Shown here piece by piece: positions 4,396-59,049 of a DNA stretch of 64,000 nt (positions within the stretch are counted from its first letter, which is position 1; each line of letters starts with the position of its first letter). The stretch spans positions 1 through 64,000 of the forward strand of contig LT642148.1 of NCBI GenBank assembly GCA_900128585.1, in the 5' to 3' direction. The notes under the pieces were generated by a model, which worked only from the letters and a program-made list of their open reading frames with translations, had not been told where the DNA came from and searched no databases. This DNA is from Stramenopiles sp. TOSAG23-3 (taxonomy: Eukaryota). The position numbers and the translations under genes were made by a program.

Positions 4396-4994
4396 GAGAA
4401 ATTGAGAATTGAGTCGTTTGTGCACGGTCCCACATTCACCTGTGATATTGTAAGCACAATACGTAGTTTGTATTCGTAGTATACCAGTTTAATACAATTA
4501 CATATCCTATCAAAATAATGAAATGGCCCTTCGGGACGCCTGGCAGGGGCCTATTTCTATAATTTACCTAATTGTCAATAGAATGGGAGGAGCCGCTCGT
4601 GGGTGCTGCTAAAGCTCCGTATGGACACAGCATCATTCGCCTAACCCTAACCCTATTTCTATAATTTACCTAATTGTCAATAGAATGGGAAGAGCCATTC
4701 GGTAGAGATTCTAAGCATTCAAATAGACACAGGATTGCAACCAATGACGTATCCATACGCAGCCTTAGCAGGACCCAAGAGCGGCTCCTCCGATTCTATC
4801 GACAATTAGGTAAAATTATAGAAATAGGCCCCTGCCAGGCTCCCCGAAGGGTCATATTGTGATAGGATACATTTGTACTTGAAGAATACAACATGGAAAT
4901 AGTTAATAATGTACTGTATTTACAATTTACAATATCAAAGGAGAATGATATGGGACCGTGGTGCATAAAAGGCTCAATTCTCAATTTCTCTCTC
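4396..4994. mobile_element. Non-autonomous Mutator(MULE)-like foldback element with long TIRs and 10-bp TSD
   Basis: 4396-4415 GAGAAATTGAGAATTGAGTC matches the reverse complement of 4971-4990 at 19/20; inverted symmetry continues ~230 bp inward; AGAAGACGAC flanks both sides (4386-4395, 4995-5004). Confidence 0.8.
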
Positions 4995-29700: not shown

Positions 29701-30524
29701 GACTGAGATATATAAGTAAATTTTTCGACCGCCTTGCGGCAATAAAGTTCCCAACCCCAATCACCGCCGGTAGCCCCAGCTACCTAGCGGCAATGCGGAG
29801 ATGGGCGGACTGGTGGATGCGAATCTTCCAGCGGAACATACTCTACGTGGTCACAAAGTCCATAGCACCAAGGATCCGAATCTACAACGCCTTAGCCCGA
29901 ACACCCTTGCCAATGGACTACTCCGCCGAAGTAGCCGACACCGTGCCCCTCATTTGGCACCCCCAACACTCGGAATCGGAGTTCGAGACGGAACCGAAGA
30001 GCTCGGAGGACGACCAATCCAGTAGTGACCACTCCAGTAGTGCCCATACTCTAATAGTGTCTCCCTCAGACGACGGCACAGAAGCACAATCCTCAATGCA
30101 ATCCAGTAGTGAGCACTCCAGTAATGCCCCGACTCTAATAGTGTCACCCTCGGATGACGACACAGAAGTACAATCCTCAATGCAACAATCAGATGATAGG
30201 ACGCCAGGCACCAACGCCCTAGTAGACGACGACGATGCTCACGCCCAACCCTTGGATGCTCCGACCCTATCAGTGACATCCTCGGACGAAGCGGACGGGG
30301 GGAAGGAGAAAAGGGACCAGAGCATCGCCAGCAGGAGCACCTCTAAAACATTCACGCCGCTGCTTGGAAAATCACACAGGGATTGTTTCATCTATGATGA
30401 GGCATCGGATGAGGAAGTTGTCTGCGGGTCGTTTAAAATCGTCGCGAATCAAAATATCCAATCGGATCATGGATGGAGTGCATCAGAGAATGATAGTCTA
30501 GACAAAGCGACCAGAGTAAATTGA
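29697..30524 (+). mobile_element. 275-aa Ser/Asp-rich ORF forming the 5' body of the 3'-spacer repeat family; contains two 84-bp direct repeats
   Basis: The ORF overlaps the upstream stop (ATGA); 30015-30098 is repeated at 30099-30182; its 3' part matches 8063-8250, 30765-30930 and 31060-31165. Confidence 0.5.
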
Positions 30525-41276: not shown

Positions 41277-44200
41277 TCATAGGTGCATATCATACGAAAG
41301 TAATACATACGGGGAACTGTTCGTTTGGCTCACAGGCACAACGACACTGTCAAATTGCGTATATGTTCTCGTTCTATTGTCGCGGTGGAGATGATTGGCA
41401 TGGAGAGTCAGAGACGGGGACGAAACATGGACGCCTTCGTCCCGCAGCCGTTGCACAAACGCATTATCAGCTCCATTTTTCCCAAAATAAAAATCGATAG
41501 TCGATGTATTGAACTCAAACGGCAACGGCAAAATCCACGCATCTTGGCTATCGGTTCGAACATTGAATTGTTTTTGTGATTTTGCACCTGGATTTCCTTC
41601 GGTACACTCCCATCGCAGAAGCGCAAAACAGTATTTTCCCATCCGATGAGGCTCTTGTTTCAACAGCGCACCAAGGGACTCATCAAAGTATATGTCAGCA
41701 TTTGCAATGATCATGTACGAATAGGCACCAAATAACTTTTGGCCATGCTCTACGGCATCTTTGAACGACGATCTTTTACCAATCAAATAGTATTCTAGTT
41801 TGCTAAGTTCAGAACACTTGCCCGTGGTTCCGCAAAGTTGTGCTAAAGATTTGTTCAACACTGTTTTAACTCGTTCAGATTCTATTAACACGTGCAACCG
41901 TGATATGTACTTATTCTGTAAGTTCAATGCCAAAACTTGTATAAATTCCCACAATCGATACCCCGATGTCGGGATGTAATATTCAGCAATTAAAACAATT
42001 GGTGGGGGCAGCGAGCTTTTGCGCTGTAGTGGCAGCGTAGTCCTATCAATGTGGTTCCTGGGTCGTTCAAACAGATTGTGCAACCACGCCCAAGAAGAAT
42101 TGAGGCGTGTGTAAACAACAGATAATGCTGAAGTAACGTGTAATATCGATGGTTCATGCAATCTTGATACCATCTTGTACATTGACGATCCGGGCGGGGC
42201 ATGAGTTGCTTCGGAAATGCAAAGGAGGCCTAACGCACAGAGCTTCCCGTGGATAGTTTCGTACGAATCAGGTTCAAGTAATTCGAATTGGGAAAATGTC
42301 GTGAGGACAAACAAATAAGTTTCATGAATGTCCAAGACTTTTGAACCCAAACTAAGCGCTCTTTGCAAGCTGTTATTTATAGTACCATAAGACCATGTAT
42401 AAACCCGGAAAAGGTTTGCAATGGCCTGGTAATTAGGACTAGAACCGACTCCAGACTCATAAGCCTTTTCCAACAAAGCTGCTGCAGAGTTGTAGCGCCG
42501 CTTTTTATACTGTTCAATGGCGTGGTTTATCAAGGCGCTAGAGTCACCGGGAATCGTAATCATCGACATCCTCAGATACTTAGAAAACAATGTCGAATTA
42601 CCAACCAGCCGTGAGTGTGTCAACAAACCATTTATGAGTTGCCCAAGGGTATGAGGGGCAACCGCATCTTGGGTTTTCCTTGCAAAATTGTATACTTCCG
42701 TAAAAATTGCCAAGGCGTCATCGTAATTCCCAGATTCAAGTAAATCGTGGCCCATTTCGATATTAGTCTGCAAACGGTCGTGCAACCCAGAGGCCAAAAA
42801 CTTGTGCATTTTTGTGGCAATCTGTACTTTGAAACCATACCCAATGCCAATACCCGATTCAGCGCCGAAGATAAACGCGGATTGCAATGGCCCCAGTGCG
42901 GGGTCAAATCGGTACGGGGTTTCCAGGAGGACATTGTCTAGGCTCATTTTGTGTATTGATGAACTATTTGCACACCAGTAAGGGCGATACAATCGTTCAC
43001 TTTGGCAAAGTGTATCATCGGCCACGAAAAATTCCTTTGTTACAGATGAGAGACTATGGGGAACATTAAAGCTGTCGCAAATCCAAGCCCGAATAAAAAT
43101 GCTGCCAGACGTGGTGATGGGAAAAGTGACTTGGACGGTTTGGACATTTGATCGCATTCTTTTGAATCCGGTGCACTTCTTTTTTGACTGTTCAACACCA
43201 CTTTGTGCGCACACTGTCCATTCAGTGTCGCCATCGCCTCCTCGCCACGGGGCAATTCTTATTCTTACTACCAGTTTTGAATGGCTGGAAAATATTGGAC
43301 CAGATGGTGCGAAGGTGAGCTTCGTAGGCAATTTTGTCAGATGACTACTCCACCAATGAAAGCCAAACGTTTGGTTCATGCTTCCATCCTTACTACATAT
43401 GGGGCAGTTGTTTTCAGCAGGGTTACTGCTGCAGAACGGTGAATCGGACCCAGGCTTTGTCAACGATTGAAAGTGGTGTATGCACTTTAAGATTTTTGTC
43501 TGCATTGAAAAATGAAGACTGTTAAAATAATGCTGAGGGTAGATTTTCATGTCTGGGTGAAAGTGCCGTACTGCAAAAGTCAAGAGTTTCGGGCCAGTCA
43601 GCTCCCACGTTTCCCGGCCATTATGCAATTTGGTCCAGGCTGGCAAATCTCGAAGCAGTCGTTGGAAAAATGGTAACCTTGGCAATGCAGCTAACACAGC
43701 ATTGTTCACCACATCCGGCGATTCTAAGATAGCAAACGAAGAGACATTTTTTACAATAGGCTTGATCTTGCGTAACGGTGTAATGTCTACATCAATGTAC
43801 ACACCGCCGTACCGCCGCAACAGTTCCAGCCGTACTATATCCGATCTAGCTCGCGGATCGGTGAGCCGCTGAAACAATTTATAGTTTTCTAAAGGGACCC
43901 CTTCGATTATATCGGCATCAGCCCAAATCTCAATCTGATGAAAGGGATGAATTCTAGACCAAGATTCGATGTTAGATTTCGCATACAGGGGAAGGGGCTG
44001 AACACCAAGCCAAACAAAGTGGAACACCTGAGGAATTTGAAAACCCGACGAATATTTTGAAGACGAATCTTGGTAAACTCCCTGGCCCCAAACTTCCCAC
44101 CCAGACAAAAACCTGAGGTCTTCATCGTATTTTAATTTTCGGCGGTGTAATGTCATCTTCAAGTCTTCCAGGCTGATGTCTAGACTGGATGCTTCGTATT

Positions 44201-44474
44201 TTTGATACAAGGACAGAGCAACCTCTTCCACGGTATCGTCGCTACAAAAGTATATAAAAGAGGTCTCGGTAACTTCATGCTTAATATCAAACTCATCCAA
44301 CGGAACTGTAAACAGCAAAGTGTTATGGTACACTCTTTCCGCACTAATCAGACTATTGTCGCAATGCATCAGAGTAGCATCAAATCTAGATGATCTCGAA
44401 AGCAATTTGCCCCCACTTTCGCAGGACAGAAAAGCAAGCCCAACGAAGAGACGTATAATTCTATTCCATTCCAT
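41277..44474 (-). CDS. Secretory-pathway multidomain glycosyltransferase: GT32/DXD sugar-binding domain, TPR-like region, second DXD GT-like domain
   Basis: N-terminal hydrophobic signal; IPQVFHFVWLG, RSDIVRLELL..YGGVYIDVD, TGP.LLT; TPR-like helices; C-terminal NADIYFD, ALLRWE, SQDAW, G..GADN. First ATG at 44474. Confidence 0.85.
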   Translation of the reverse strand: MEWNRIIRLFVGLAFLSCESGGKLLSRSSRFDATLMHCDNSLISAERVYHNTLLFTVPLDEFDIKHEVTETSFIYFCSDDTVEEVALSLYQKYEASSLDISLEDLKMTLHRRKLKYDEDLRFLSGWEVWGQGVYQDSSSKYSSGFQIPQVFHFVWLGVQPLPLYAKSNIESWSRIHPFHQIEIWADADIIEGVPLENYKLFQRLTDPRARSDIVRLELLRRYGGVYIDVDITPLRKIKPIVKNVSSFAILESPDVVNNAVLAALPRLPFFQRLLRDLPAWTKLHNGRETWELTGPKLLTFAVRHFHPDMKIYPQHYFNSLHFSMQTKILKCIHHFQSLTKPGSDSPFCSSNPAENNCPICSKDGSMNQTFGFHWWSSHLTKLPTKLTFAPSGPIFSSHSKLVVRIRIAPWRGGDGDTEWTVCAQSGVEQSKKKCTGFKRMRSNVQTVQVTFPITTSGSIFIRAWICDSFNVPHSLSSVTKEFFVADDTLCQSERLYRPYWCANSSSIHKMSLDNVLLETPYRFDPALGPLQSAFIFGAESGIGIGYGFKVQIATKMHKFLASGLHDRLQTNIEMGHDLLESGNYDDALAIFTEVYNFARKTQDAVAPHTLGQLINGLLTHSRLVGNSTLFSKYLRMSMITIPGDSSALINHAIEQYKKRRYNSAAALLEKAYESGVGSSPNYQAIANLFRVYTWSYGTINNSLQRALSLGSKVLDIHETYLFVLTTFSQFELLEPDSYETIHGKLCALGLLCISEATHAPPGSSMYKMVSRLHEPSILHVTSALSVVYTRLNSSWAWLHNLFERPRNHIDRTTLPLQRKSSLPPPIVLIAEYYIPTSGYRLWEFIQVLALNLQNKYISRLHVLIESERVKTVLNKSLAQLCGTTGKCSELSKLEYYLIGKRSSFKDAVEHGQKLFGAYSYMIIANADIYFDESLGALLKQEPHRMGKYCFALLRWECTEGNPGAKSQKQFNVRTDSQDAWILPLPFEFNTSTIDFYFGKNGADNAFVQRLRDEGVHVSSPSLTLHANHLHRDNRTRTYTQFDSVVVPVSQTNSSPYVLLSYDMHL

Positions 44475-44967
44475 ATTGCCAAGTCGCTTCGTGTTTCGCA
44501 AATTAAGGCATGCCCTTCAGAAACACTGATCTTACAGAGTACCGCCTTTTTTTTACCAATTCGATTTCTTCGTCAATCTTCTCGTGCATATGTATTCTGC
44601 AACGCATACATACGCACACAACACATGCCCTCGGATTCTGTTCTTTTATCTTCTCAGTCCTTGTCGTGGTCGTGGTGCTCGGTTTGATTTCTTCATCATC
44701 GTCAAACCCATATATATGACATTATAATAATAATATATATTATTATAATGTCATATATATATACACACCAAGGTATAAAAATTTAGACGCAATAATAATA
44801 ATAATAAATAATTATAATAAAATGTATATTTTTTTTCATACGCGGGGGGAAATTTCCGGAAGAATCCTTTAAATTGGGGAAATTATGTTCGTTTGTTTGT
44901 AGATATTATTATAGTCGTTCTAATAATACATCCTTAAATAAAATGAAGAAGAAAAAAGTCGTCGTCG

Positions 44968-45018
<51 letters not shown>

Positions 45019-45186
45019 NNNNNNNNNNNNNNNNNNNNNNNNNNNNNNNNNNNNNNNNNNNNNNNNNNNNNNNNNNNNNNNNNNNNNNNNNNNNNNNNNN
45101 NNNNNNNNNNNNNNNNNNNNNNNNNNNNNNNNNNNNNNNNNNNNNNNNNNNNNNNNNNNNNNNNNNNNNNNNNNNNNNNNNNNNNN
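45019..45186. other. Assembly gap preceded by a ~49-nt poly-T
   Basis: Run of N. Confidence 1.
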
Positions 45187-45978: not shown

Positions 45979-46145
45979 NNNNNNNNNNNNNNNNNNNNNN
46001 NNNNNNNNNNNNNNNNNNNNNNNNNNNNNNNNNNNNNNNNNNNNNNNNNNNNNNNNNNNNNNNNNNNNNNNNNNNNNNNNNNNNNNNNNNNNNNNNNNNN
46101 NNNNNNNNNNNNNNNNNNNNNNNNNNNNNNNNNNNNNNNNNNNNN
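45979..46145. other. Assembly gap
   Basis: Run of N. Confidence 1.
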
Positions 46146-46363
46146 CGCTTTCCTACTTTTTAAGAAAATACAATTTAGCTAATAGCCGCAAATAATTTTA
46201 TGGCCTTGGGACAACACCGCATTTCATCTCAAGTAAAGGAAGTTAATTTTTATGGCATAGTGTAGTTTACCAAACCGTTCTCTCTTTTCTCTCTCTCTCT
46301 CTCTCTGGCATTCCAACTCTTCCCATCAAAAGTATCATACCGAAAAGGGTTGGACCCAAATTT

Positions 46364-49300
46364 TTATGGCATAGTGTAGTTGTACATGTCTGGTTCTGGG
46401 GCAGACAGGTTCATTGGCATGCCATAATAATCAAGCTGATCGGCTGGTAGAGCCTCGGCGGTGTACCCAAAAGTATTGTTGTAACTGGCGTACTCGCACG
46501 ATCCGCACCAGTTCGTGTCGCCGGCTGGGCACACTTCGCCCTCTTCTAGGTGAGTAGCGTGAGGATCATAATTGTCCGCGTTCATGTCAGTGCAGCCGTA
46601 TACTTTTTCTGGCCATATGCAGGTCGTCCCTGCTTCATCGGCTACCATCTTGGAGTACACAAAGTCACCATTGGGGGAGTAAGTCATTCCACACTCTTCG
46701 CAGTAAGGGACAGACATTGCGGTTTCGTCACACCACGGGTCAACGACCTCGATGAACTCGCTGGTTTCCTCAGTAGCGTTGGCAGTGTAGTTGACCTCAG
46801 TCCACGTTTCCCAGGTTGTCCCATCATCCTCAACGTAAACGGTGTGGTTGTACTCAGGTACGTGCATGTCGACGGGCTCGAAGTGCGTGGTAACGATGCT
46901 TTTGAAGCTGCAGAACCCATTTCCATCATCGCTCGACGGCTTCGAGTCCCCGTCCTTCCATTGAGAGCACCAATCGCAGTTGTCTGTGCAATAGGCGTGT
47001 CCATCCCCGGGGGGAGAGCAATACATCTGCGCGGTGGTGGAAGATTGCCAATCCCAGCCGTAGTCGGTGGGGTTCCTGCACTTCTCGGCAACCTCTTCTT
47101 TCGTGGCCATGCAGGACGTCGCATCGTATTTCTGGTGATCTACGCCGTGCGGGGGTCTGAACGGCAATCCTGGGCAATCCTCCTCGCACGAGGAGGACGA
47201 GTCGAGGCACTGGCGTGTCGTCGGGCACCACACTTTCCATTGGGCAATGCAATTTTCTTTGGTCTGCTCAATGCAAGTGCGGCTGCCAGCTTGCCAGTCC
47301 CATTCCGTCAACGAAAAGCGACCGCAGTGGTCTTCGCACGCCGTGTCGTCCTTCCATTCTGTATCCTCGCCTCCAATAACGGGGTCTTCGTCGCGGTTGT
47401 ACGGGAAATTGTTTGGGCGGAGACACGTCTTTGTCAACGGGCAATAGGCTTCCGGCTGGGACTGTTCGTACGGCCCCCAGCCTCCCCAATCGTATTTGTA
47501 TTCAACATTGGCCGTTGCATCTGGGCACGCTGCGTCGCACGTTCCTGCCTCGCTGTTTGGAATATGGAAATCCACCACCTTCTCGGTCTCCTCCCACATG
47601 TAACTCACCTCATTGTGCCCCCACACCATCAACGTATCCGTACAGTCCGAGCAGTCCGCCGAGCACATTTGGCTGCCTTCGCACCAGTAGTGACCGTTGC
47701 CTTTGCACTCTTGCCTCATGTCTTTCTGTTCAACGCACGTGCCCGATTTGTTCACTGGAAGTGGCAAATGCTGAACGTTCGCGGGGGTGTACTTGTCCGT
47801 TTTGTCATCTGCGCGAACGGGTTTGTAACAATTGTGGCAATCCATTACGCACTCGCCAGTAAAAGTTCCGTCTTCCTTAGCCGTTTGGTCGTTCGGGCAC
47901 CATGCCATACCGGCCCTTACGCAGGCGTCTTTGTCGGCAACTTCGCACGTTCGTTGTGGGCGATACGTATTCGAGGCACCGTGGTCAACGTGTTTTTTCT
48001 TTGCAAGGTGGTTGTTGGAGTCTTCGTCCCATAAATGGCACTCGGAGGCGCAGTGCTGTACGTCGTACTCCACGCTCTGTTTAGCGGTTTGAATGTTACA
48101 CCGGTACATTCCAGCCCGCTGAAAGTTTGGATCAGCGGCACAGGTATTATTGCCAGATTCAATTGTCAGCGGGTCATTGTTCCAGTCTACACATTTTGTG
48201 CCGGAACAATTGGTGAATGTATCGCCAGAGGTCGGGCAGTAGTATCCCGTGGTCAGCGCCTTTGGTCGCACGCACTCTCCCGTGTCGGTGTCCCCGGCCG
48301 GCGTCCCATCGCACCAATTGCATTTGTCGACGCATTCCGTGCTCCACTGTGTTTTGCACAAGAATTTGTTGCCATCAGCTTTGCACGAGGCCTTTGTCAC
48401 CGGTCCGCACGAGGTCGCGTTGCCGTAGAAAGCATAATTGTTTGCGGAATGGAAGCGTACTCCTTGGTCGGCGCGACTCTCGCTCAGCTGCGTAAAATGG
48501 TGATTGTACATGCCGCTTGCCCCCATGTCCTTCTGGCACGCCCAGTCGGCGCACTCCTCGACGCAATCCTGGTTCAGTTCACAGAACACTTTGCCAAGTC
48601 GCCGGCAAACGTTCGGGTTTGGAATGGCGCACACATGGGTCTTTGGGTCACCGACGAGATGTGGCGTGATGGTGATGTCGATTCCCGCTATCCCGGTGCT
48701 GTTGCCACGGTGGTGGCACTCGCCGTGGCAGTGATCCACGCATTTGCGGCTTTCTGCGCAGTACATTTGCCCATTGGCGTTGCAGGTCGGGCCCGACGGG
48801 GTACCACATACCCTCACGCGCTCGGGGTGGTCGAACACCGAGGAATCCATGCAGTTGAAGCACTTGCCATCGACCACAGGGACACACGCTGTCTTCCCAG
48901 ATTTCGTGGACCTGCAGTACGCTGTCCCGTGTTCGCAACCGGGTGGTTTGTTGGATTCAACTTTTGGCATATTGTCGTTGCCTGGAAGACTATGGCACTT
49001 CTTGGTCATGTTGTTGTACAGGCAGCCCGGGTCCATCTCGCACTCTTTCCAATTCGAGTGCTCCATGCATTTCTTCTGCGTCCCATCATCGTTGCACGTG
49101 GAACATTCTGGGCAGTCTGGGTCGAATCCGGGCAGTTCGCTAGACACGTCAAACCCGGCGCAAAACTCTCCCACGGACGCGTACGTAGGGAAGAACTCTT
49201 GAAAGAAGTGAAAGTCCACGGTAATGCCGTCCGCAATGTGCATCGGGGCGTGCCCCAAATCGCTCAGTTCAATTACCGGCGCTTCGATGTCCGTCTCATG

Positions 49301-49702
49301 CCGAATCGTCAAGTCAACCGGGAACGTTGGGGATACCAGACTGTCCGTGTTCATGGATGACGTGTCGCACACGAAGAACTCCTCTTTTCCGGTCGCCTTA
49401 GATACGTCCTTGGTCATCTTTCCAGTCCCAGGGCAGCACGCCTGTGCGTCGCCAGTTGCATCAAGGCACTGGTTCGCAATGCGGTTGGCAACCTTCGTTG
49501 GAAATGTAGCCTGGCCAGAAATGGTGACTGCATCCAAGGACACGACGCCGCAGTAATCCATGCTCATGCAGATTTTTTGTTCGCCCTCCTCGTCCGCATT
49601 TTTTTCATGAATTTCAAAAAAGAGCCGAAACTCTCCTTTTTCCTTGTCCCCGAAAATTACAGAGGGCAGGCCCGTCTGTTCGTCCTTGATAAAATGACGT
49701 TT
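46364..49702 (-). CDS. Cys-rich repeat C-terminal part of the giant extracellular protein (-1 frame relative to the upstream ORF)
   Basis: The frame is open upstream of the annotated ATG (..KRHFIKDEQTGLPSVIFGDKEKGEFRLFFEIHEKNADEEGEQKIC-MSMDY); no signal peptide of its own; ~11 [YWF]C..C..C..C repeats; GCTDMNADNYDP near the end. Confidence 0.85.
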   Translation of the reverse strand, partial: KRHFIKDEQTGLPSVIFGDKEKGEFRLFFEIHEKNADEEGEQKICMSMDYCGVVSLDAVTISGQATFPTKVANRIANQCLDATGDAQACCPGTGKMTKDVSKATGKEEFFVCDTSSMNTDSLVSPTFPVDLTIRHETDIEAPVIELSDLGHAPMHIADGITVDFHFFQEFFPTYASVGEFCAGFDVSSELPGFDPDCPECSTCNDDGTQKKCMEHSNWKECEMDPGCLYNNMTKKCHSLPGNDNMPKVESNKPPGCEHGTAYCRSTKSGKTACVPVVDGKCFNCMDSSVFDHPERVRVCGTPSGPTCNANGQMYCAESRKCVDHCHGECHHRGNSTGIAGIDITITPHLVGDPKTHVCAIPNPNVCRRLGKVFCELNQDCVEECADWACQKDMGASGMYNHHFTQLSESRADQGVRFHSANNYAFYGNATSCGPVTKASCKADGNKFLCKTQWSTECVDKCNWCDGTPAGDTDTGECVRPKALTTGYYCPTSGDTFTNCSGTKCVDWNNDPLTIESGNNTCAADPNFQRAGMYRCNIQTAKQSVEYDVQHCASECHLWDEDSNNHLAKKKHVDHGASNTYRPQRTCEVADKDACVRAGMAWCPNDQTAKEDGTFTGECVMDCHNCYKPVRADDKTDKYTPANVQHLPLPVNKSGTCVEQKDMRQECKGNGHYWCEGSQMCSADCSDCTDTLMVWGHNEVSYMWEETEKVVDFHIPNSEAGTCDAACPDATANVEYKYDWGGWGPYEQSQPEAYCPLTKTCLRPNNFPYNRDEDPVIGGEDTEWKDDTACEDHCGRFSLTEWDWQAGSRTCIEQTKENCIAQWKVWCPTTRQCLDSSSSCEEDCPGLPFRPPHGVDHQKYDATSCMATKEEVAEKCRNPTDYGWDWQSSTTAQMYCSPPGDGHAYCTDNCDWCSQWKDGDSKPSSDDGNGFCSFKSIVTTHFEPVDMHVPEYNHTVYVEDDGTTWETWTEVNYTANATEETSEFIEVVDPWCDETAMSVPYCEECGMTYSPNGDFVYSKMVADEAGTTCIWPEKVYGCTDMNADNYDPHATHLEEGEVCPAGDTNWCGSCEYASYNNTFGYTAEALPADQLDYYGMPMNLSAPEPDMYNYTMP

Positions 49703-52700
49703 TCCATACCCATACCCGGCTCGTCGTACGCTTCGTCCTCATTTTGCAACAATCTGCGCCGTTCCAACCCTTTGCGTTTTCTTTTCTCCTCTTGTCTCTT
49801 TGCCTTCCTCGCAGCCTTTGCGTCCGCCTTCTTGGCTGCTGTTTTGGCCAACCTATCTGCCTTCTTGGCGTCTTTCTTGTCTTGTTTTCGTGTTTGTTCG
49901 TCTTGTTTTCGTTTAGCCTGCTTCTGTTCTTTCTTTTTGGCTTTCTCCTCCATTATCTGTTCCCGAACGTAATTATCGGGGCCGTTGACGTTATGTTGCA
50001 TTTCAACCCTCATCGGCGAGTCTTTGCACGGCTCGTGGGTGACAACAGCAGTACAGTTGGGCATCGGTCTACCGGTACACCTCACATCTTTCCTCAAGTC
50101 TGGCATTGGTTCCTCTAAATGGCCTATCCTTTTCCCTCGAGGATCGGTGTAAGGTTCAGCGGATCGAACGGGCCGGGCCGAGTCTGTCACGTCATCAAAA
50201 CTGGTATTGCCGCGCAGCCTTTGGCCTCTGGTCACACGCGTGTCGACCCTCTCGTCCTCGGACCTTGGTCTTCTCCCACTCTGCTCCTCGCGGTCCGTGT
50301 CGATTCTTGCGCGCGTGTCACGGGCTACAACCTCCCTCCTTCTCGTGTCTTCCTCTACTGTGCGCACTTCGCGTTGTCGCATTCGAGTGTCAATCTTCTC
50401 TCGGGCATTGTCGTACGCCCTTGCGTCTCTCTCTGGGATACCATCCTCTCTTCTAGTATCTCTCTCATCCTCATCCCTTCTAGTATCTCTCTCATTTTCA
50501 TCCCTTCCAGGATCCCCTCTCTCATCCCGAGCCTCGTCGCGGCGTTGCACTTGGACCCTTTCGTCCCTCCCGCTTGTTAGCGACACAGATCTCTCTGTTG
50601 CTGTCACCACCATTTCACGAGCGCAGCGGTCAACTTCTCTCTCGCATTCGTGGTATGCTTCGCACACACTAATGCACTTGGCCTCTTCTCTGCCACCGGG
50701 GGCGGTGGAGAAATAGTCCTTGGTACAGCCACCGCAGTTGCGATCGCCGTCCGCCATTGTATCAGCGCAATCATCAATTTCTCGCCCCCGCCGCTCCATG
50801 ACTCTTTCCGTGGTGTCCCTTGTGCTTTCACTTCTTTCTGATGCTTCCGATCGGGATGCGCGTTCTTGCCGGGTGTCCCTAACTGCCTCCCGAGGGTTTT
50901 CAATCCGCGGGTTCTCCCGCTCTCGCTCCTCAGGGCGACGCTCCATGTTCATCTCTCGCTCACGGAAGGTTTCGGTAACGGCTGAAGTACCTCTTTCGTT
51001 GGACATTCTGTCGACGCGCTCGTTCACCCTTGCCGTCGTGCGTTCTTGCGTCCTCGCGGTGCCTGAGCCCCTGCCCATTTCGCTAGCGCCTCTGGTCTCA
51101 CCTCGCAATTTACGCAGCCTGCGCCCGTAGTCATGCTGCTTTAAACGGCGGTATGGTGCGAGTGAATCGGGGTGGAATTGCATTTCATGCGTACGGGTGA
51201 AGTGCGCGCCCCCATCGCTTGAGGGCTTGTGCGGAAACGTTGTGTACGTACAAGGGGCCATCTTGTGGTCCATTGCTTCCAGGGACGCACCCATACCAAT
51301 AAGGGCATCGACCGCCTCGTCGACATGGTGATTTGCAACGTATGCATTATTATTCGATTCAAAGTCAGGGTAGACACTCATTGGGTCGTCGGGTTCGTGG
51401 TCCCAAGTTTCCCCCGTGAGGTATAAGTGTTCGTAATCAAACGTGGCTGGGGTGCAGGCTTGGGTGGTATCCTTGTGGCATGCCAAAGATGTGTTCGCTG
51501 CCAAGCTACCGGCGGCATCTGCCGTCTCTACGTATTCGTACATGTGGTCTACCAAGTACTCCTCTGCGGCATACATGTTCTGCTCTGCTCGAAACGACAG
51601 GGCGGCCGAGTGCTGCGTGTGGTTTGCGTGGTGGACCTCAAACTCTGCCTCGGCCAAATCGTGATTGCAGGGCTCAACGTTTTGTTGAAAAAATTCCAAT
51701 TGATCGGCAGAAGCCGTCGTTGTAAGCGCTACCTGAAAGTCAAAGCACGTTTTCTCAACCGTCTCCAAGTGTGCGACTGCTTCCACCATATGGTCCATCG
51801 CAACCTCCATTTCCTTGAACGTGTGAGTCTTGTCGCATGTTGCAGCACCGCACATCGCCGCCTTCTGCGTCGCGGCGTACTCAACGGGTGCAGCAAAGAC
51901 ATCTCCGGGTTGCGCGACGGACTCTTCCGCGTAGTACTCGGGGGTTCCCATTCCTGCGCCAAGCGCAGCTTCAAAGTTATCGTTCATCCAGTCCTGGTGA
52001 CCAACGTCGTGTGCCAGTTCCATAGCATGGGCACCGTGGGGCCCCAAGTCGAACTTGGGTGCGGCGGTGTCGATGTCGTGCATCATGTTTGGGTCGTGCT
52101 CAAATTGTGGGGGGGTCTCCATGTCCATCAATCGACGCCTGGTCTTATGGTGCGCCTTGGCAACACGCCTGGCGCGGAGGTGCGCCTTTCGGACAACGCG
52201 TAGCATTTTGCGGTGAAAGGCGTGTTTGGATAGGGCGTGGCGTTTCGCTGCAAGCAGCCTTCTCCGGGCACGAAGCCTGCGCACATGGTGTGGTCCTTCC
52301 GGTACTTGTTTGGCGATAAAATCCATGTCGCCATTGTCAATCTCGTACTGGTGAGCGGCGTTGCAATCTTCTACCATGATGCCTGTCGTAGGAGACTCGT
52401 ACAAGGTCAAATCCGCCGCTGCAACGGGGGCTACCAAGCGTCGGTACGCGTGGGCGGCAAGAAGAGGGTGGTACTTGGTCTTAACACTCCTTTTGTGCTT
52501 TTTACTGTTCTTGCTCAGGCGACGGTGCTTCTCTTTGAGTCGTCTCACCCTCCGTACCACGTCGTCGTCGTGCATTTGCATAAAATCGCCCGCCATTGGG
52601 CCCATGTGCATGGCCTCATTGCCGCCCGCGGGAGGAAGGCTCGCTGCTGCCTTGAACTCAATGTCGCCAGTGATACATTCGTGCTCCCCGCATGTCATAG

Positions 52701-54639
52701 AACCGTCAAAGTTGCACTTTGCGTGGGGCGCTACGTCTTTGACCATTTCTTGGCAGTACATGCCCTGGCACATGGTGTGCATTTCTTTCATCATTAAATC
52801 GTCCATGCCGTCTGGCGTGTGGGTAACCATGGTCACCTCCGCCTCCGCTATAGCAACACCGGTAAGATCGTCCATCGTATACTCGCCTTCCATTTCAATC
52901 ATCTCGTGGTGAGCATCGCTCGTGATGGTTCCATGCTCCTCGTGGAAGAGACTGGGTATTGGGTGCTCCACCCCGTCATCGTCTGTAAAATGGTCCAAGA
53001 TGTATTCTTGAACACCAGGATCGTTCGCCGAGCAAGGGTGGGCTGCCTCTGGGTGATCGCACTGCTTCATAGTGGTGAAATCCATGTTGAACGCCGCCAT
53101 CGGTGGTGGGGGCTCCATCATCGCTGGGTAGTCTTCGAACACCATTTCCATCTTCAAAGGGTCGTACTTCTCCATGTCCACTCCCATGGGGGGTGCTGTG
53201 TCTTGGGCAACTTCATACGGTTTCTTGTTCGTTGGGGACGACGTGCCCTTGGCTTTTACATAGCATGCATTGTCGTAAGGGAGCATCATGGTGCCTTCCG
53301 GCCTCTCTGGGTCCAAATTGGTTGCGTCTCCCAGTTGGTTCGCGTACACGAACTCCTCCTGCAACGATTTCGAGACGGCGATGGTGCCGTCTGCCCCAAG
53401 ATGCACTACGCCGTCTGCCCCAGCGGGACCACCGGCTGCTACCGTGAACTTGGCGGTATTGCCAAAACCTCCGTCTGTTTCCTCCGGTGTCATTGCGCCC
53501 TCAAATACGAGATCATTAATGGCAGGGTTTCCTGGGCATGAGACCACAATCTCCGAAACAGTCTCTAAGTGCTCTGGGTTCGTCGAACCATCTACAACAA
53601 AGGTGCGTGGAGCCCCCTTCACAATCGTCGTTTGTAGCCCAGAGAGCAATTCGTACGCTTTGTAGTTCGCATGGGCATCGAGATCGACATCGACTGCCGC
53701 TGCCACTTCCGGAGCGTCTTTTTTCAGTACCGTAGCCGTCCATTCAACAGCGTCTTGCGTCATGGTGATGGGGCTATCTTCTGACCCTAGCCCATACTTG
53801 ACCATAAGTGGGTCAATTACTGCCTTTTCTCCCTTAACAGGGTCCTTCATAGTCGGGCAATCGTGCGTTGGGACAATCTGCGTCGTGGTACCGTCGTTAT
53901 ACAGGCATATCTCACATTTCAAGCATTCGGGGTCCACCAACGATGGGTAAATTTCATCCACTGGGGGGGCCGCATGCTCGGCTTCAATGAGTTTCTTGCA
54001 CTCGTTGCAGTGCTTAAATTTGTCCTCTTTGTGCTTCGTCTGTTTTTCTTTCCCTGTCATACCCTCCATGGCCATGTATTTAGCTTCCATACTGACATCA
54101 ATAGGGTCCTTGGGTTCTTCGGGCATCATCGGCGGTTCCATGGCCACGGGCTTATCCCATTTCTCGCCTATGGTACTGGCGGGGGTAATGAGCCCCCTTC
54201 CCCCTAGCCGTCTCCGTTCAGAAGAGGAAGCGGGCAGTGCGGCAGAACTTCCAGGGGTTGCGACGGGGGTTCCCCCGCGCACGCGTGATTCTTTCGTGAT
54301 CTCGATGGCGGCAATCCCCATGCACATGATACATCCAAGACAAAATATTATGCCAATTACAATGCCACAAACAATTTTTCGAAGGCGGTTTGCATCTTTT
54401 TGAGCACGCTCTGCATCTTCTTCCAAGGATAATATTTCAATAAGTGATATGTCGCCATCGCCATCTCTGTCAAGTTTTCTTAAATTGCCGATGGTTTGTT
54501 TTTGCTTTTTGCTTAGTGTGCCCCCACCCTGGGTGAGGCTTCGTTCGATTTCGTTTACGTTGAACGTGTAGTCACTCAGACTTTTCCGTCCTGGGCGCTT
54601 ACCCATTGGGTTTGTTTCAGTCATTTCTACTTCAGCCAT
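49657..54639 (-). CDS. Type II membrane protein: EF-hand, single TM, multiple RRL motifs, His/Met-, Arg/Glu/Asp- and Lys-rich blocks
   Basis: Likely ATG at 54639 (MAEVEMTE); DRDGDGDISLIE EF loop; TM IVCGIVIGIIFCLGCIMCMGIAAI; about ten RRL motifs. Confidence 0.85.
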   Translation of the reverse strand: MAEVEMTETNPMGKRPGRKSLSDYTFNVNEIERSLTQGGGTLSKKQKQTIGNLRKLDRDGDGDISLIEILSLEEDAERAQKDANRLRKIVCGIVIGIIFCLGCIMCMGIAAIEITKESRVRGGTPVATPGSSAALPASSSERRRLGGRGLITPASTIGEKWDKPVAMEPPMMPEEPKDPIDVSMEAKYMAMEGMTGKEKQTKHKEDKFKHCNECKKLIEAEHAAPPVDEIYPSLVDPECLKCEICLYNDGTTTQIVPTHDCPTMKDPVKGEKAVIDPLMVKYGLGSEDSPITMTQDAVEWTATVLKKDAPEVAAAVDVDLDAHANYKAYELLSGLQTTIVKGAPRTFVVDGSTNPEHLETVSEIVVSCPGNPAINDLVFEGAMTPEETDGGFGNTAKFTVAAGGPAGADGVVHLGADGTIAVSKSLQEEFVYANQLGDATNLDPERPEGTMMLPYDNACYVKAKGTSSPTNKKPYEVAQDTAPPMGVDMEKYDPLKMEMVFEDYPAMMEPPPPMAAFNMDFTTMKQCDHPEAAHPCSANDPGVQEYILDHFTDDDGVEHPIPSLFHEEHGTITSDAHHEMIEMEGEYTMDDLTGVAIAEAEVTMVTHTPDGMDDLMMKEMHTMCQGMYCQEMVKDVAPHAKCNFDGSMTCGEHECITGDIEFKAAASLPPAGGNEAMHMGPMAGDFMQMHDDDVVRRVRRLKEKHRRLSKNSKKHKRSVKTKYHPLLAAHAYRRLVAPVAAADLTLYESPTTGIMVEDCNAAHQYEIDNGDMDFIAKQVPEGPHHVRRLRARRRLLAAKRHALSKHAFHRKMLRVVRKAHLRARRVAKAHHKTRRRLMDMETPPQFEHDPNMMHDIDTAAPKFDLGPHGAHAMELAHDVGHQDWMNDNFEAALGAGMGTPEYYAEESVAQPGDVFAAPVEYAATQKAAMCGAATCDKTHTFKEMEVAMDHMVEAVAHLETVEKTCFDFQVALTTTASADQLEFFQQNVEPCNHDLAEAEFEVHHANHTQHSAALSFRAEQNMYAAEEYLVDHMYEYVETADAAGSLAANTSLACHKDTTQACTPATFDYEHLYLTGETWDHEPDDPMSVYPDFESNNNAYVANHHVDEAVDALIGMGASLEAMDHKMAPCTYTTFPHKPSSDGGAHFTRTHEMQFHPDSLAPYRRLKQHDYGRRLRKLRGETRGASEMGRGSGTARTQERTTARVNERVDRMSNERGTSAVTETFREREMNMERRPEERERENPRIENPREAVRDTRQERASRSEASERSESTRDTTERVMERRGREIDDCADTMADGDRNCGGCTKDYFSTAPGGREEAKCISVCEAYHECEREVDRCAREMVVTATERSVSLTSGRDERVQVQRRDEARDERGDPGRDENERDTRRDEDERDTRREDGIPERDARAYDNAREKIDTRMRQREVRTVEEDTRRREVVARDTRARIDTDREEQSGRRPRSEDERVDTRVTRGQRLRGNTSFDDVTDSARPVRSAEPYTDPRGKRIGHLEEPMPDLRKDVRCTGRPMPNCTAVVTHEPCKDSPMRVEMQHNVNGPDNYVREQIMEEKAKKKEQKQAKRKQDEQTRKQDKKDAKKADRLAKTAAKKADAKAARKAKRQEEKRKRKGLERRRLLQNEDEAYDEPGMGMENVILSRTNRRACPL

Positions 54640-55342
54640 ACTTTTGATATTTGTACAGATTTTGTTTCTGCTATATGAAGTGTTGCTAACCAATATTTTT
54701 TGAACGGGGGTGGGGGAAATTAGAATTGTCGGGGTAGAATTGGGCGCGTACACAAGTATTGTAGGGAGTGCAGAGTGGTATTTTAGGTATCTTTTCATCT
54801 CAAACAACTTTCGAAAAATAGTTATCAGTGCTCTGTGCCGCTAAATATTATTGTGTAAAAAATAAAATAAGAGGGGACGCCATTACCACAGGCACTATAG
54901 CATGAAAATATTTTATTGTGATAAAAAAAATAGGAGAGACTAGACCTCTGCCCAATTTATGACGATAACCATTCGCTATTGTCTACCCGTATTTTGATAT
55001 ATCTTGGAAGACATTAATCCAATGAATTTGCCTCACATGACCAATTATGACGATGTTTGCCCATTTTTTTATCCCTTTTTCAATGCGAGTAAGAAAGCTC
55101 GTGTCGATTCTAGCGATGCCCTCCTCGTATATCATTACAGATTTTTGTCGACCCAAATATACTAGACTATGCTATTGACAAATCTGTTCTCGTTGTTTCG
55201 TGTTAAACAAATCACCTATCATTTTATCTATATTAAAATGTATTCTAATGAAATGACCTGACTGACGTCGTCTATTTTTTATAACCACCCAACACCCAAC
55301 CAATATTTTTTTTCTGTAGTACTAAAAATAATAATCATGAAG

Positions 55343-55380
55343 ACAAAAAATGGCTGTTATATTTAAGTATTTAAATTTTA
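55343..55380 (-). repeat. Degenerate 3'-spacer repeat core downstream of ELF1
   Basis: ACAAAAAATGGCTGTTATATTTAAGTATTTAAATTTTA. Confidence 0.7.
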
Positions 55381-55754
55381 TGTTCAGTAAAGTTTCACTT
55401 CCTTTGTATAGCGAATTTATTTCTGCTCCTTAAAATAATAATAAAAATACCACCTGTTGTGTGAACGGATAATAATAATATGCGACTACTAATTAATAAC
55501 AAAAAAATAAAAACCTTCTCTCCTTTTACTTTATTTTCGTAATCATTTTAAAACAGAAAATTTTGATATTTAAATTGGTTTATGCACAGATATACTGTAA
55601 CTTCAAAACAGTAACACGAGTGCTGACCTGTTGGTTATACGAAGTACGAACATATACAGGAGCGAAACGGTGAAAAAATATGCTACCATCGCTGTTCTTG
55701 CTAGTTCCCTTCTTTCCCTTCTCTTTGTACGAAGTGCCATCAAATCCGACTCCA

Positions 55755-57420: not shown

Positions 57421-59049
57421 TTACAATTCCGAACTGCGAAGTTCATCCACTTTATTCTTCCACATTTCTGCGGACTGCTTTCGGATCGCCTCGTACACCT
57501 CTGCGCCCCCAAACCCATATTTGATGGGCGGGGTAGTGCTCTCTTCGAACTCTTCAATAAGAGGTGTCCATATCTCCCAGGAGGGGAACAATGTCTTTGT
57601 CGTGACAAAATTTTGTCGAAGTCCGTCCACGACGTTCGCAATCAGCACTTCGTATGCATTCTTAACGGGGAGTTGTTCGGGCACTGCAAGGCTCGTGCCA
57701 GTTTCACCAGAGTATACTGGGCTGGTGGTAAATCCGGTTGGGCTAGAGAACAGTGGTGCCTCTGACGTTGCGGATATACTGGTGCCGCCGGGCCCACCTT
57801 GTATATTTATCATCAATTCGCCCTGTCCTCTTTTGAAAACGACCCTCACGAATGCCGCCCGTTCGTCTAGCGCTTTGCCAGAACTCAAAATGAACGGAAC
57901 CCCCTGCCAGCGCTCGCTGTCAATGGTAAGCATGACAGCCGCGAAAGTGGCTTGCTTCGAGACCTTGTAGGGTTGATTGCCCCCACTATTGTCCTGCAGA
58001 TCTCTGTTGACGTGCTCGTTGTAACCCGAATACTGCCCCATGACCGATTGCTCGACGGACGGCGCTCGCACTTTTGACAGCAAGGACGCTTTGTTTCGCA
58101 GCATAGATTCCGTGTCCGCAGTGCCTGTCGATGGAAGCTCCATTGCAACGAGGGCAGCGATCTCCGTTAGGTGGTTCTGCAGTACATCGCGGACAATCCC
58201 ATACTGATCAAAAAAATTGGTCCGCCCAGCGCATGTGATTTTCTCTTTCATGACCACTTCGACCCGTTCGACATGCTCTCGGTTCAGAATCGGCTCGTAG
58301 GATCCCTGGTTCGCAACGCGAAAGTTAATGACCGCTTGGACCCCTAGCTTGCCAAGGTAATGGTCGATGCGATACATTTCTTCTTCCTTCAAATGCTTTT
58401 GCAAGTTTTTCGCCAACTCCTTCGCAGTGTCTAAATTTGAGCCGAACGGTTTTTCCATAACGACCCTCAGCCATGCCCCGTTCGCACTGGGCGGCCGAGC
58501 ATGGTTGTGAATGCTCTGTGCAATGCCCGAGTAAAAACGCGGAGGGATGGACAGGTAGAACAGTCGCCCAGCTTCGACGTTCGCGGTTCCCGTATCCGCC
58601 ACGATGGCAGCGTTCAGCCGCTTGTAGTGCTCGCCCCCCCGAAGCTGCGTGTAGCCACGTACCACGTTAGTGATAAAAAAACGTTTGTCTTTCTCACAAT
58701 ACATTTGATCGGCAGGAACCGGGTAGTCAATTCCAAGCTCGCAGTTTATTTTCGTCTCCAATATTTTCTCCAAAGAGTGTCCTACTTTTTCTTTCGAACT
58801 TGAAGCTGCGGGCCAAATAACTAGCCGTGGCTGACTCGGCGTAGTGGTACTTCGGATGTGAAGCCGGAACAACGATTGCCACAGGTACTTTTTCGCAAGG
58901 TCACCAGTGGCACCAACAAGTACAACGTTGATCACCGACCCCTTGGGGCCTGCACCGTTTGTGGAAGGGAGGAAGTACACCCCGAGACCCACGACGGCAA
59001 AGAGCGCAAGCGTAACGGCGTGCCTCGCTCGCCTTTGTGAAAGTCTCAT
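57421..59049 (-). CDS. H6PD: Hexose-6-phosphate dehydrogenase-type (ER) glucose-6-phosphate dehydrogenase, dehydrogenase domain only
   Basis: Signal/anchor peptide; GATGDLAKKYLWQ, GAWLRVVMEKPFG, YRIDHYLGK, RDVLQNHLTE; ends SSEL. Confidence 0.88.
   Translation of the reverse strand: MRLSQRRARHAVTLALFAVVGLGVYFLPSTNGAGPKGSVINVVLVGATGDLAKKYLWQSLFRLHIRSTTTPSQPRLVIWPAASSSKEKVGHSLEKILETKINCELGIDYPVPADQMYCEKDKRFFITNVVRGYTQLRGGEHYKRLNAAIVADTGTANVEAGRLFYLSIPPRFYSGIAQSIHNHARPPSANGAWLRVVMEKPFGSNLDTAKELAKNLQKHLKEEEMYRIDHYLGKLGVQAVINFRVANQGSYEPILNREHVERVEVVMKEKITCAGRTNFFDQYGIVRDVLQNHLTEIAALVAMELPSTGTADTESMLRNKASLLSKVRAPSVEQSVMGQYSGYNEHVNRDLQDNSGGNQPYKVSKQATFAAVMLTIDSERWQGVPFILSSGKALDERAAFVRVVFKRGQGELMINIQGGPGGTSISATSEAPLFSSPTGFTTSPVYSGETGTSLAVPEQLPVKNAYEVLIANVVDGLRQNFVTTKTLFPSWEIWTPLIEEFEESTTPPIKYGFGGAEVYEAIRKQSAEMWKNKVDELRSSEL

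Follow-up and report, generated by a model that had tools for sequence, protein, structure and literature searches.

Processing at short motifs of the type Arg-x-Leu (RXL) or Arg-Arg-Leu (RRL) is described as typical of diatom biosilica-associated proteins (PMC5525289, PMC4557024, PMC5501833, PMC10328945). As set out in these sources, the diatom RXL domain comprises about 30 residues, ends in RRL and lies behind the helix that targets the protein to the endoplasmic reticulum (ER) (PMC5525289), the repeats of the silaffin Sil1p end in RRIL or RRNL, which are missing from the mature peptides, and RXL has been proposed as a general endopeptidase signal that is also present in frustulins, cingulins and silacidins (PMC4557024). 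SiMat7-like proteins are presented as a combination of a signal peptide, an RXL domain and a C-terminal transmembrane (TM) helix (PMC5501833), and parmalean silicanin homologues are reported to carry an RXL domain as well (PMC10328945). RXL processing of diatom cell-wall proteins dates to the first silaffins, and in the account given by these papers the protease and its recognition rules are still unknown. In Toxoplasma, the Golgi aspartyl protease ASP5 is described as cutting its substrates N-terminally as well as C-terminally, at a PEXEL-like motif that is highly constrained (PMC4764566). The subject of the present analysis is a minus-strand gene in DNA of Stramenopiles sp. TOSAG23-3 (assembly GCA_900128585.1, contig LT642148.1, positions 1 to 64,000; this whole stretch of 64,000 nucleotides is called the window), whose product of 2,772 residues is studded with RRL. 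As judged from its sequence, this gene probably encodes a membrane-anchored secretory pro-protein of a marine protist that would be processed at several RRL/RxL sites, a reading adopted because of a signal anchor, an RRL at a fixed distance from it, conserved RRL/RxL at domain borders, and luminal Cys residues and sequons.

RRL motifs and the gene that carries them

The N-terminal 1,648 residues of the protein contain ten RRL tripeptides as compared with 0.50 expected, a number reached in none of 2,000 composition-preserving shuffles, and four RRRL as compared with 0.05 expected; the sequence-only reading of this DNA had counted about ten. The next non-Arg residue following RR is Leu in 10 of 19 cases, and among other tripeptides in the same part of the protein LRR, RRA and RRI are absent and RRV occurs twice. 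No enrichment of RRL was observed in the 15 other open reading frames (ORFs) of the window, all of which stand at expectation.

Relatives were sought by word-index and profile-free searches, and the alignment comprised six sequences, namely the window protein together with P0132, P0003, P0004, P0005 and P0014. Full-length relatives were found in environmental data only (P0003 with 2,703 residues, P0004 with 2,652 and P0005 with 2,728), further relatives being the fragments P0006 and P0014, and P0132, which was translated from the DNA sequence L004; a word-index search with residues 1-150 for longer relatives returned P0014 only and no named relative. All relatives are environmental and either unnamed or annotated as 'hypothetical protein' (10 were looked up by cluster). 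The N-terminal part of the five homologues is 58, 37, 37, 28 and 26% identical to the window protein, and the C-terminal half is 53, 50, 34 and 93% identical to its relatives, with many Cys residues invariant. In each homologue the RRL number exceeds expectation (8 observed against 0.44 expected in P0132, 9 against 0.46 in P0003, 7 against 0.18 in P0004, 9 against 0.26 in P0005 and 5 against 0.15 in P0014) and was reached in none of 1,000 shuffles. The sequence-only reading had made processing depend on the conservation of RRL positions, and these are indeed kept in five homologues at 26-58% identity, with eight of the ten sites lying at the 89th-99th percentile of local conservation as computed in 7-residue windows centred on the site (individual sites are listed in Table 1). 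Among the six most conserved 7-residue windows of the ectodomain in the N-terminal half, five lie in the basic spacers, headed by HPLLAAH with a score of 0.91 and followed by those at 791, 835, 702 and 817.

The gene runs from an ATG at 54639 to a stop codon at 46364-46366, on the strand and at the coordinates at which it was first noted, and its start agrees with the N-termini of the relatives P0007, P0016, P0020 and P0023. In the window as given, it appears as two minus-strand ORFs in different frames (49657-54807 and 46364-49567) with no continuous frame; the second is open upstream to about 49740, and the frames overlap around 49660-49740. Contigs of four public runs were aligned to 46146-55500; one DNA run may be the source of the window according to its marking, the other DNA run is marine and independent, and the RNA runs belong to two studies. 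All four contig sets (two DNA, two RNA) contain 43 nucleotides that are missing from the window at 49695, where the contig coordinates jump by 43 (4814 to 4857, 1588 to 1631, 1019 to 1062 and 1441 to 1484). Two window bases and these 43 nucleotides make up 15 codons that bridge both frames, and the environmental sequence P0006, which is 93% identical over the C-terminal half, reads through the break, its MENV and F[I/M]KDEQTG being separated by exactly 15 residues. Since the 43 nucleotides are carried by all four contig sets and the 15 residues are matched in P0006, the restored gene is a single intron-less ORF of 8,319 nucleotides, and the break appears to reflect faulty assembly of the window, which puts a false frameshift into a gene that is otherwise intact. 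That the gene is broken (a pseudogene) or represents two genes, as the two overlapping ORFs of the window without a continuous frame would by themselves imply, is scarcely credible, given that the extra bases recur at the exact spot in every contig set, that the bridging codons have their counterpart in P0006 and that all full-length homologues are continuous. Homologues on DNA are likewise single ORFs, of 2,783 residues in L004 and of 2,658 residues in L005, the latter flanked by AT-rich non-coding sequence on a contig of 12.9 kb. The possibility that the two ORFs are joined by a short intron, GTAATT...GAG at about 49568-49659, was rejected: this segment encodes FGDKEKGEFRLFF, which is kept in all homologues, and the RNA contigs have no joint there.

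RNA contigs from two studies span 46146-54662, colinear with the DNA and without joints, and none extends past 54882, whereas the DNA contigs go on. The stretch is present in 17 RNA runs and in 20 runs in all, which come from 12 studies, polyA and cDNA metatranscriptomes included. The gene is transcribed as one colinear transcript in marine metatranscriptomes, and with such expression its protein is probably relevant in the sea. The GC content of the gene, which the sequence-only reading had singled out as higher than in neighbouring genes, is indeed 0.54 as compared with 0.40-0.53 in 15 neighbouring ORFs; GC at third codon positions (GC3) is 0.59-0.66, at or slightly over the top of the range of the other window ORFs (0.41-0.63), and as the raised GC tracks GC3, as in other high-GC3 ORFs of the window, no special explanation is needed. 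Two runs of N, 45019-45186 (168 bases) and 45979-46145 (167 bases), lie just downstream of the stop codon, and hence the window gives the 3' untranslated region and the intergenic region only in part.

The anchor cassette and its distribution

The N-terminal module combines a hydrophilic tail, an EF-hand loop, a TM helix, an ExTKES motif and the first RRRL. No signal peptide was found, the first 88 residues being hydrophilic and the sole hydrophobic helix lying at residues 89-112, and hydropathy revealed no second hydrophobic helix in the C-terminal half; the TM sequence is free of Asn and Pro. The protein is by these features predicted to be a type II single-pass protein with a cytosolic N-terminus and a luminal remainder, in line with the cytosolic EF-hand and single TM helix of the sequence-only reading. 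In the loop DRDGDGDISLIE, which has helices on either side, Asp occupies positions 1, 3 and 5, while positions 6, 8 and 12 are Gly, Ile and Glu, respectively. The Pfam EF-hand cutoff is not reached, P0007 (98% identical) scoring 14 bits on EF-hand_5 with a cutoff of 25.9, and a Pfam search of the 1,660-residue N-terminal part gave no family at E<=1; the EF-hand_1 cutoff (25.4) is passed by 10 of 24 family members. A homodimer prediction of residues 20-150 scored 0.01, which gives no verdict on pairing of the lone EF-hand. On the predicted luminal side, the motif EITKES is followed by a Ser/Gly/Pro/Ala linker leading to the first RRRL, which stands as SERRRLGG within this Ser/Gly/Pro-rich sequence, 25 residues past ExTKES and 30 residues past the end of the TM helix.

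A phmmer search with residues 1-1200 against 1.84 billion representatives (E<=1e-3) returned 71 matches, 48 of them confined to residues 1-205. Longer proteins with the cassette and unrelated ectodomains include P0041 (1,334 residues), P0065 (1,154 residues), P0048/P0088, P0047, P0070 and P0071, among which P0065 joins the EF-hand/TM/ExTKES/RRL cassette to an ectodomain that ends in two Kringle domains (E 4.6e-18) and contains five RRL. In such unrelated ectodomains RRL is again in excess, with 5 observed against 0.37 expected in P0041 and 5 against 0.27 in P0065, neither count being reached in 1,000 shuffles; the counts of P0088 and P0048 were reached in 5 and 3 of 1,000 shuffles, respectively. 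The post-TM motif, written as E-x-[TAS]-K-[ED]-x, matches 40 sequences, one of which (P0006) is false. The first RRL-type motif follows 24-29 residues past it in 15 proteins and at +39 in one, and at +101 to +158 in 11 proteins, a subfamily whose members have a further domain of about 100 residues and often R-x-x-L-L. Of 38 members, 35 have a 12-residue EF loop, and in 34 the distance from the start of the loop to the post-TM motif is exactly 56 residues. Searching ESM Atlas with the N-terminal 200 residues gave nearest clusters that are eukaryotic, the commonest label being Bacillariophyta, with one row labelled Haptophyta and one Chlorophyta.

Within the family, P0038, P0044, P0049, P0055, P0064, P0066 and P0075 have two EF loops, AAVEAAKDS[KR]P past the TM helix and the domain of about 100 residues, and in this subfamily HRHRQLL, RRRSLL, HRRSLL and TRKLL, of the R-x-x-L-L type, replace RRL. 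The environmental sequence P0009 (187 residues) is identical to the window N-terminus at 139 of 141 positions up to ...ALPASSS and then diverges into an AT-rich-looking sequence just before RRRL; chimerism of the contig, truncation of a paralogue or use of an alternative 3' end might each account for this.

Anchor and cargo also differ in their relation to individual homologues. The first 125 residues of the window protein are 87% identical to P0005 (104/120) and the ectodomains 27%, while the N-terminal module is 52% and the ectodomain 59% identical to P0132. These opposite identity patterns indicate that anchor and cargo are separable modules. This mosaic relationship, in which the tail and TM helix (window 54265-54639) are P0005-like and the ectodomain is closest to P0132, suggests that paralogues have exchanged the anchor cassette or that gene conversion has taken place between them.

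Table 1. Window coordinates of the gene and of the parts of its product, and conservation of the ten RRL sites (site numbers are residue positions)
Feature	Window position	Strand	Basis
Whole gene, one intron-less ORF of 2,772 residues including the missing 43 nucleotides	46364..54639	-	ORFs, contigs, homologues
Frame break, 43 nucleotides absent, 15 bridging codons	49694..49696	-	four contig sets, P0006
Predicted cytosolic tail, residues 1-88, hydrophilic	54376..54639	-	sequence, hydropathy
EF-hand loop DRDGDGDISLIE, residues 57-68	54436..54471	-	canonical 12-residue pattern
Single TM helix (predicted signal anchor), residues 89-112	54304..54375	-	Kyte-Doolittle maximum 2.87; 19-residue windows starting at residues 83-98
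Post-TM predicted luminal motif E-I-T-K-E-S, residues 113-118; family consensus AA.E.tKEsrv	54286..54303	-	family comparison
First RRRL, residues 142-145, candidate release site, 'RXL-domain'-like	54205..54216	-	RRL in 5/5 homologues; 99th percentile
Block 1, residues 146-698: acidic (about -57), 15 Cys, partly beta-rich	52546..54204	-	composition, AF2
Basic spacer region, residues 699-838; RRL at 699, 706, 733, 787, 793, 835	52126..52545	-	composition, conservation
Block 2, residues 839-1163: acidic (-44), 25 His; helical bundle at residues ~916-1126	51151..52125	-	composition, AF2
YRRLKQHDYGRRL double site, residues 1163-1175	51115..51153	-	RRL in 3/4 and 4/4 covering homologues; 94th, 89th percentile
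R/E/D/T low-complexity region, K/A-rich stretch (residues ~1561-1625), then ERRRLL (residues 1626-1631)	49747..51114	-	composition
C-terminal half, 1,109 residues: acidic (-92), 84 Cys, 12 N-x-S/T sequons; best-conserved half	46367..49693	-	composition, alignment
Site 143			RRL in 5/5 homologues
Site 699			RRL in 4/5 homologues
Site 706			RRL in 1/5 homologues
Site 733			RRL in 0/5, RxL in 5/5 homologues
Site 787			RRL in 4/5 homologues
Site 793			RRL in 5/5 homologues
Site 835			RRL in 4/5 homologues
Site 1164			RRL in 3/4 homologues
Site 1173			RRL in 4/4 homologues
Site 1628			RRL in 0/3, RxL in 2/3 homologues

Cargo blocks, proposed processing and its rivals

That RRL delimits chemically distinct blocks, as had been proposed from the letters alone, is borne out by the charges of the successive parts (about -57 in block 1, +9 and +16 in the basic spacers, -44 in block 2 and -92 in the C-terminal half) and by the 25 His of block 2 and the 84 Cys of the C-terminal half. 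The basic spacer region holds two cationic peptides, 703-735 (+11) and 797-837 (+16), which flank an acidic insert of about 50 residues. The Cys repeats of the sequence-only reading are present in the C-terminal half, in about eight six-Cys units rather than about 11, of the form C-x7-C-x7-C-x5-C-x3-C-x2-4-C (spacing 8-8-6-4-3/5), and the abundance of Cys together with the 12 N-glycosylation sequons of this half fits a luminal or extracellular location. Met/His richness was considered as a conserved metal-binding trait and rejected, since the Met runs in block 1 of the window protein are not kept in P0003 or P0004, as seen in an alignment inspected by eye and uncounted.

An AlphaFold2 (AF2) model of residues 147-1165 (24-row alignment; mean predicted local distance difference test, pLDDT, 58.6) contains a helical bundle predicted with confidence at residues ~916-1126 (pLDDT 80-90) and, with moderate confidence, a beta-rich domain at residues ~516-626 (pLDDT ~65-70). 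The RRL sites fall between the predicted domains, in linkers or in helices of low confidence; the model of the C-terminal half has a pLDDT of 35.8 and is unusable. Using the model of residues 147-1165, Foldseek gave no match in the Protein Data Bank (PDB) at E<=1e-3, and the VIA wide structure search gave generic helical bundles only (Z<=10), most rows falling on model residues 633-903 with the beta-rich part barely covered. In a PDB sequence search of the ectodomain the best E was 0.49, and an ESM Atlas search with the C-terminal half gave no usable match. With neither a Pfam nor a PDB match and with all relatives named at most 'hypothetical protein', the family is undescribed, as the sequence-only reading had supposed.

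In the proposed mechanism, the exiting EF-hand helix would continue at an invariant spacing into the helix of the signal anchor and on to the luminal ExTKES, with RRRL about 25 residues beyond it and the cargo thereafter. The cargo would consist of two folded domains of acidic character, a low-complexity region rich in charged residues and a large glycoprotein module that is acidic and Cys-rich, its domains being parted by short, highly conserved polycationic spacers that start and finish with RRL/RxL. A luminal endoprotease of the ER or Golgi that recognises RRL/RxL, of the same kind as in diatom silaffin, silacidin and cingulin precursors, would cleave the cargo from its anchor and yield several acidic domains and cationic peptides. 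These fragments would most likely become cell-surface or secreted matrix material, and the EF-hand would presumably bind calcium. Calcium sensing and the structural, adhesive or mineralising roles suggested by the sequence-only reading are conjectural for now.

Several observations weigh against processing of this kind. Cleavage itself we infer from sequence, and the residues at P1' of the RRL sites follow no pattern. Site 706 (68th percentile) and the last site, 1628 (1st percentile), are poorly conserved, and the single RRL of the C-terminal half (CRRLG, residue 364 of that half) is clearly unconserved, its homologues having CHRLG, CHRIG or CHARG instead. The spacers are conserved well past RRL itself, as in HPLLAAH and RVVRKAH, which would be unneeded for mere cut sites, and several RRL fall into one predicted long helix (residues ~783-841), a poor conformation for a protease substrate. 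In the wider family, 12 of the 40 sequences with the post-TM motif have no RRL-type motif in ectodomain pieces of 7-110 residues, most of which are truncated, P0056 with 110 residues of ectodomain being among those without it. A link to diatoms is hinted at only by the Atlas taxon labels, so that transfer of the diatom RXL rule is an extrapolation. The conservation of the spacers suggests either cationic peptides that are functional products between cut sites or helices that act in the intact protein.

The latter would hold if the product were an unprocessed giant surface or matrix protein, in which RRL-bearing basic amphipathic helices bind the acidic domains of the same protein, acidic polysaccharides, membranes or mineral, and RRL is a by-product of an Arg/Leu helix code. 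This is consistent with conservation peaks that comprise entire basic spacers and not RRL alone, with the single long helix modelled across residues ~783-841 and with the position of the +11 and +16 spacers between domains of -57 and -44; but a helix code should also yield LRR, RRI, RRV and RRA, which were found 0, 0, 2 and 0 times as compared with ten RRL, isolated RRL islands occur outside helices, such as the SERRRLGG linker at a fixed membrane distance, and RRL is also in excess in family members where its surroundings are unrelated and not basic, so that an intact protein appears unlikely. More specific is the idea, taken from the sequence-only reading, of a biomineral (silica) matrix precursor, in which RXL processing would supply polycationic and polyanionic parts to a mineralising vesicle. 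For this analogy speak the typical occurrence of RXL/RRL processing in diatom biosilica proteins, as described in the sources cited at the outset, the prevalence of the label Bacillariophyta among the Atlas clusters closest to the N-terminal module, the alternation of polycation and polyanion blocks and a Lys-rich stretch that reaches 22 Lys per 100 residues. As defined in the methods of a preprint, silaffin-like sequences have a segment with at least 10% Lys and at least 18% Ser, and KxxK motifs in which x is Gly, Ser or Ala. No 100-residue window of the protein reaches K>=10% together with S>=18%, the motif K[GSA][GSA]K occurs nowhere in the N-terminal part and once in the C-terminal half, and the overall composition is 4% Ser and 5.8% Lys; the K/A block is missing from P0004 and P0005, and there is no similarity to named silica proteins and no signal peptide. 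A silica precursor in the strict sense is on balance distinctly unlikely.

The juxtamembrane RRRL can also be viewed as a signalling site. In regulated intramembrane proteolysis (RIP), the site-1-protease substrates ATF6, SREBP and the CREB3 family are type II proteins with a luminal basic-x-x-Leu tens of residues past the TM helix, a cytosolic effector such as bZIP and helix-destabilising Asn/Pro in the TM helix. By analogy, RRRL would be a site-1-protease-like cut, after which intramembrane cleavage would free the EF-hand tail as a signal, an idea compatible with a processed pro-protein. Type II topology, basic-x-x-Leu about 30 residues into the lumen at a fixed TM distance in 15 members, the rigid spacing from EF loop to TM helix and the second subfamily with R-x-x-L-L-type motifs would all suit such a sensor. 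It is nevertheless very improbable, as the cytosolic tail has just 88 residues with no effector domain besides one EF-hand by Pfam, the TM helix has no Asn/Pro breaker, and nine further RRL sites and a cargo of 2,600 residues would be left unexplained. Returning to the membrane-anchored, RRL-processed pro-protein, we tentatively propose a bolder form, in which EF-hand loop, 44 residues, ExTKES, about 25 residues and RRL would constitute a portable and so far undescribed anchor-and-release module of marine algae (probably diatoms and relatives) that routes unrelated luminal cargos through the secretory pathway to be freed by an RXL endoprotease, possibly gated by cytosolic calcium by way of the EF-hand helix that passes into the TM helix. 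The 2,772-residue protein would then be its largest cargo and a true polyprotein, with peptides of 33 (+11) and 41 (+16) residues as its most conserved products besides polyanionic domains.

Neighbouring genes and comparison with known systems

The product of the next gene downstream on the same strand (41277-44501) is a DXD glycosyltransferase, as shown by a match to Gly_transf_sug (E 8.6e-12); a TPR_12 match of 22.1 bits is under the 30.1 cutoff. It is possible that the two genes are functionally linked, the secretory protein being heavily glycosylatable, although adjacency alone is no proof. Farther away on the plus strand, 20578-29700 is an ORF of 3,040 residues with an MSP/ASH-like N-terminus (Motile_Sperm 18.9 bits, under the 25.9 cutoff), and the ORF 29697-30524 overlaps it by 4 nucleotides (ATGA) in another frame; these may be one gene with a frame problem or two abutting genes. 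The minus-strand gene 57421-59049 encodes glucose-6-phosphate dehydrogenase with a hydrophobic, signal-like N-terminus (MRLSQRRARHAVTLALFAVVGLGVYF...), a hint that the enzyme is located outside the cytosol. Scanning the window for Rfam families and for tRNAs found nothing.

The family represents a dense and conserved set of putative RXL substrates, with up to ten sites per protein and a juxtamembrane site at a fixed distance in many unrelated proteins. Such a set could help to define the motif, to find the protease and to ask whether the pathway is general to secretion rather than specific to silica. The fusion of EF-hand and signal anchor in a fixed register suggests, at the level of sequence, a direct link from cytosolic calcium to the handling of luminal cargo. 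A literature search found no description of an EF-hand/signal-anchor/RXL architecture.

With EF-hand proteins (Pfam PF00036/PF13202/PF13499) the cassette shares a canonical 12-residue loop flanked by helices, and it departs from typical members in having a single EF-hand and not a pair, a fixed-register fusion to a TM helix and a window copy under the Pfam cutoff. It resembles site-1-protease substrates in type II topology and in a luminal R-x-x-L-type site near the TM helix, and is unlike them in its lone EF-hand, which is not a transcription factor, in its giant multi-site cargo and in a TM helix lacking Asn/Pro. The motif of Toxoplasma ASP5 is RRL. In apicomplexan export (Toxoplasma ASP5/TEXEL; Plasmodium plasmepsin V/PEXEL), an aspartyl protease of the Golgi or ER is described as cutting a short and tightly constrained Arg-x-Leu-type motif, which may stand N-terminally, internally or C-terminally in secretory proteins (PMC4764566), but lineage and biology (host-cell effectors) are other ones, and the present sites have no Glu/Gln/Asp preference two residues past Leu.

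The closest likeness is to the diatom RXL precursors (silaffins/Sil1p, silacidins, cingulins, SiMat7-like proteins and Silicanin-1), in which, according to the descriptions available (PMC5525289, PMC4557024, PMC5501833), RRL/RXL also lies about 25-30 residues behind an ER-targeting helix, further RXL stand at the ends of internal units where the precursor is cut into several products, cationic and anionic products arise from precursors, and the processing protease is unknown. The analogy drawn in the sequence-only reading is apt in the two respects of an RRL-ended RXL domain behind the ER-targeting helix and of repeat ends of the RRIL/RRNL type (PMC5525289, PMC4557024). In contrast to these diatom proteins, which have a cleavable signal peptide (some being soluble and others type I proteins whose TM helix is C-terminal), typically comprise fewer than 1,000 residues and are rich in K, S or NQ, the window protein is predicted to keep its signal anchor, which is N-terminal and preceded by an EF-hand tail in the cytosol. 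Its 2,772 residues are rich in Ala, Asp, Cys, Glu and Thr, and it has no detectable sequence similarity to any named silica protein. RXL-processed secretory precursors are of a known kind; the rigidly spaced EF-hand/signal-anchor/RRL cassette on many cargos is undescribed.

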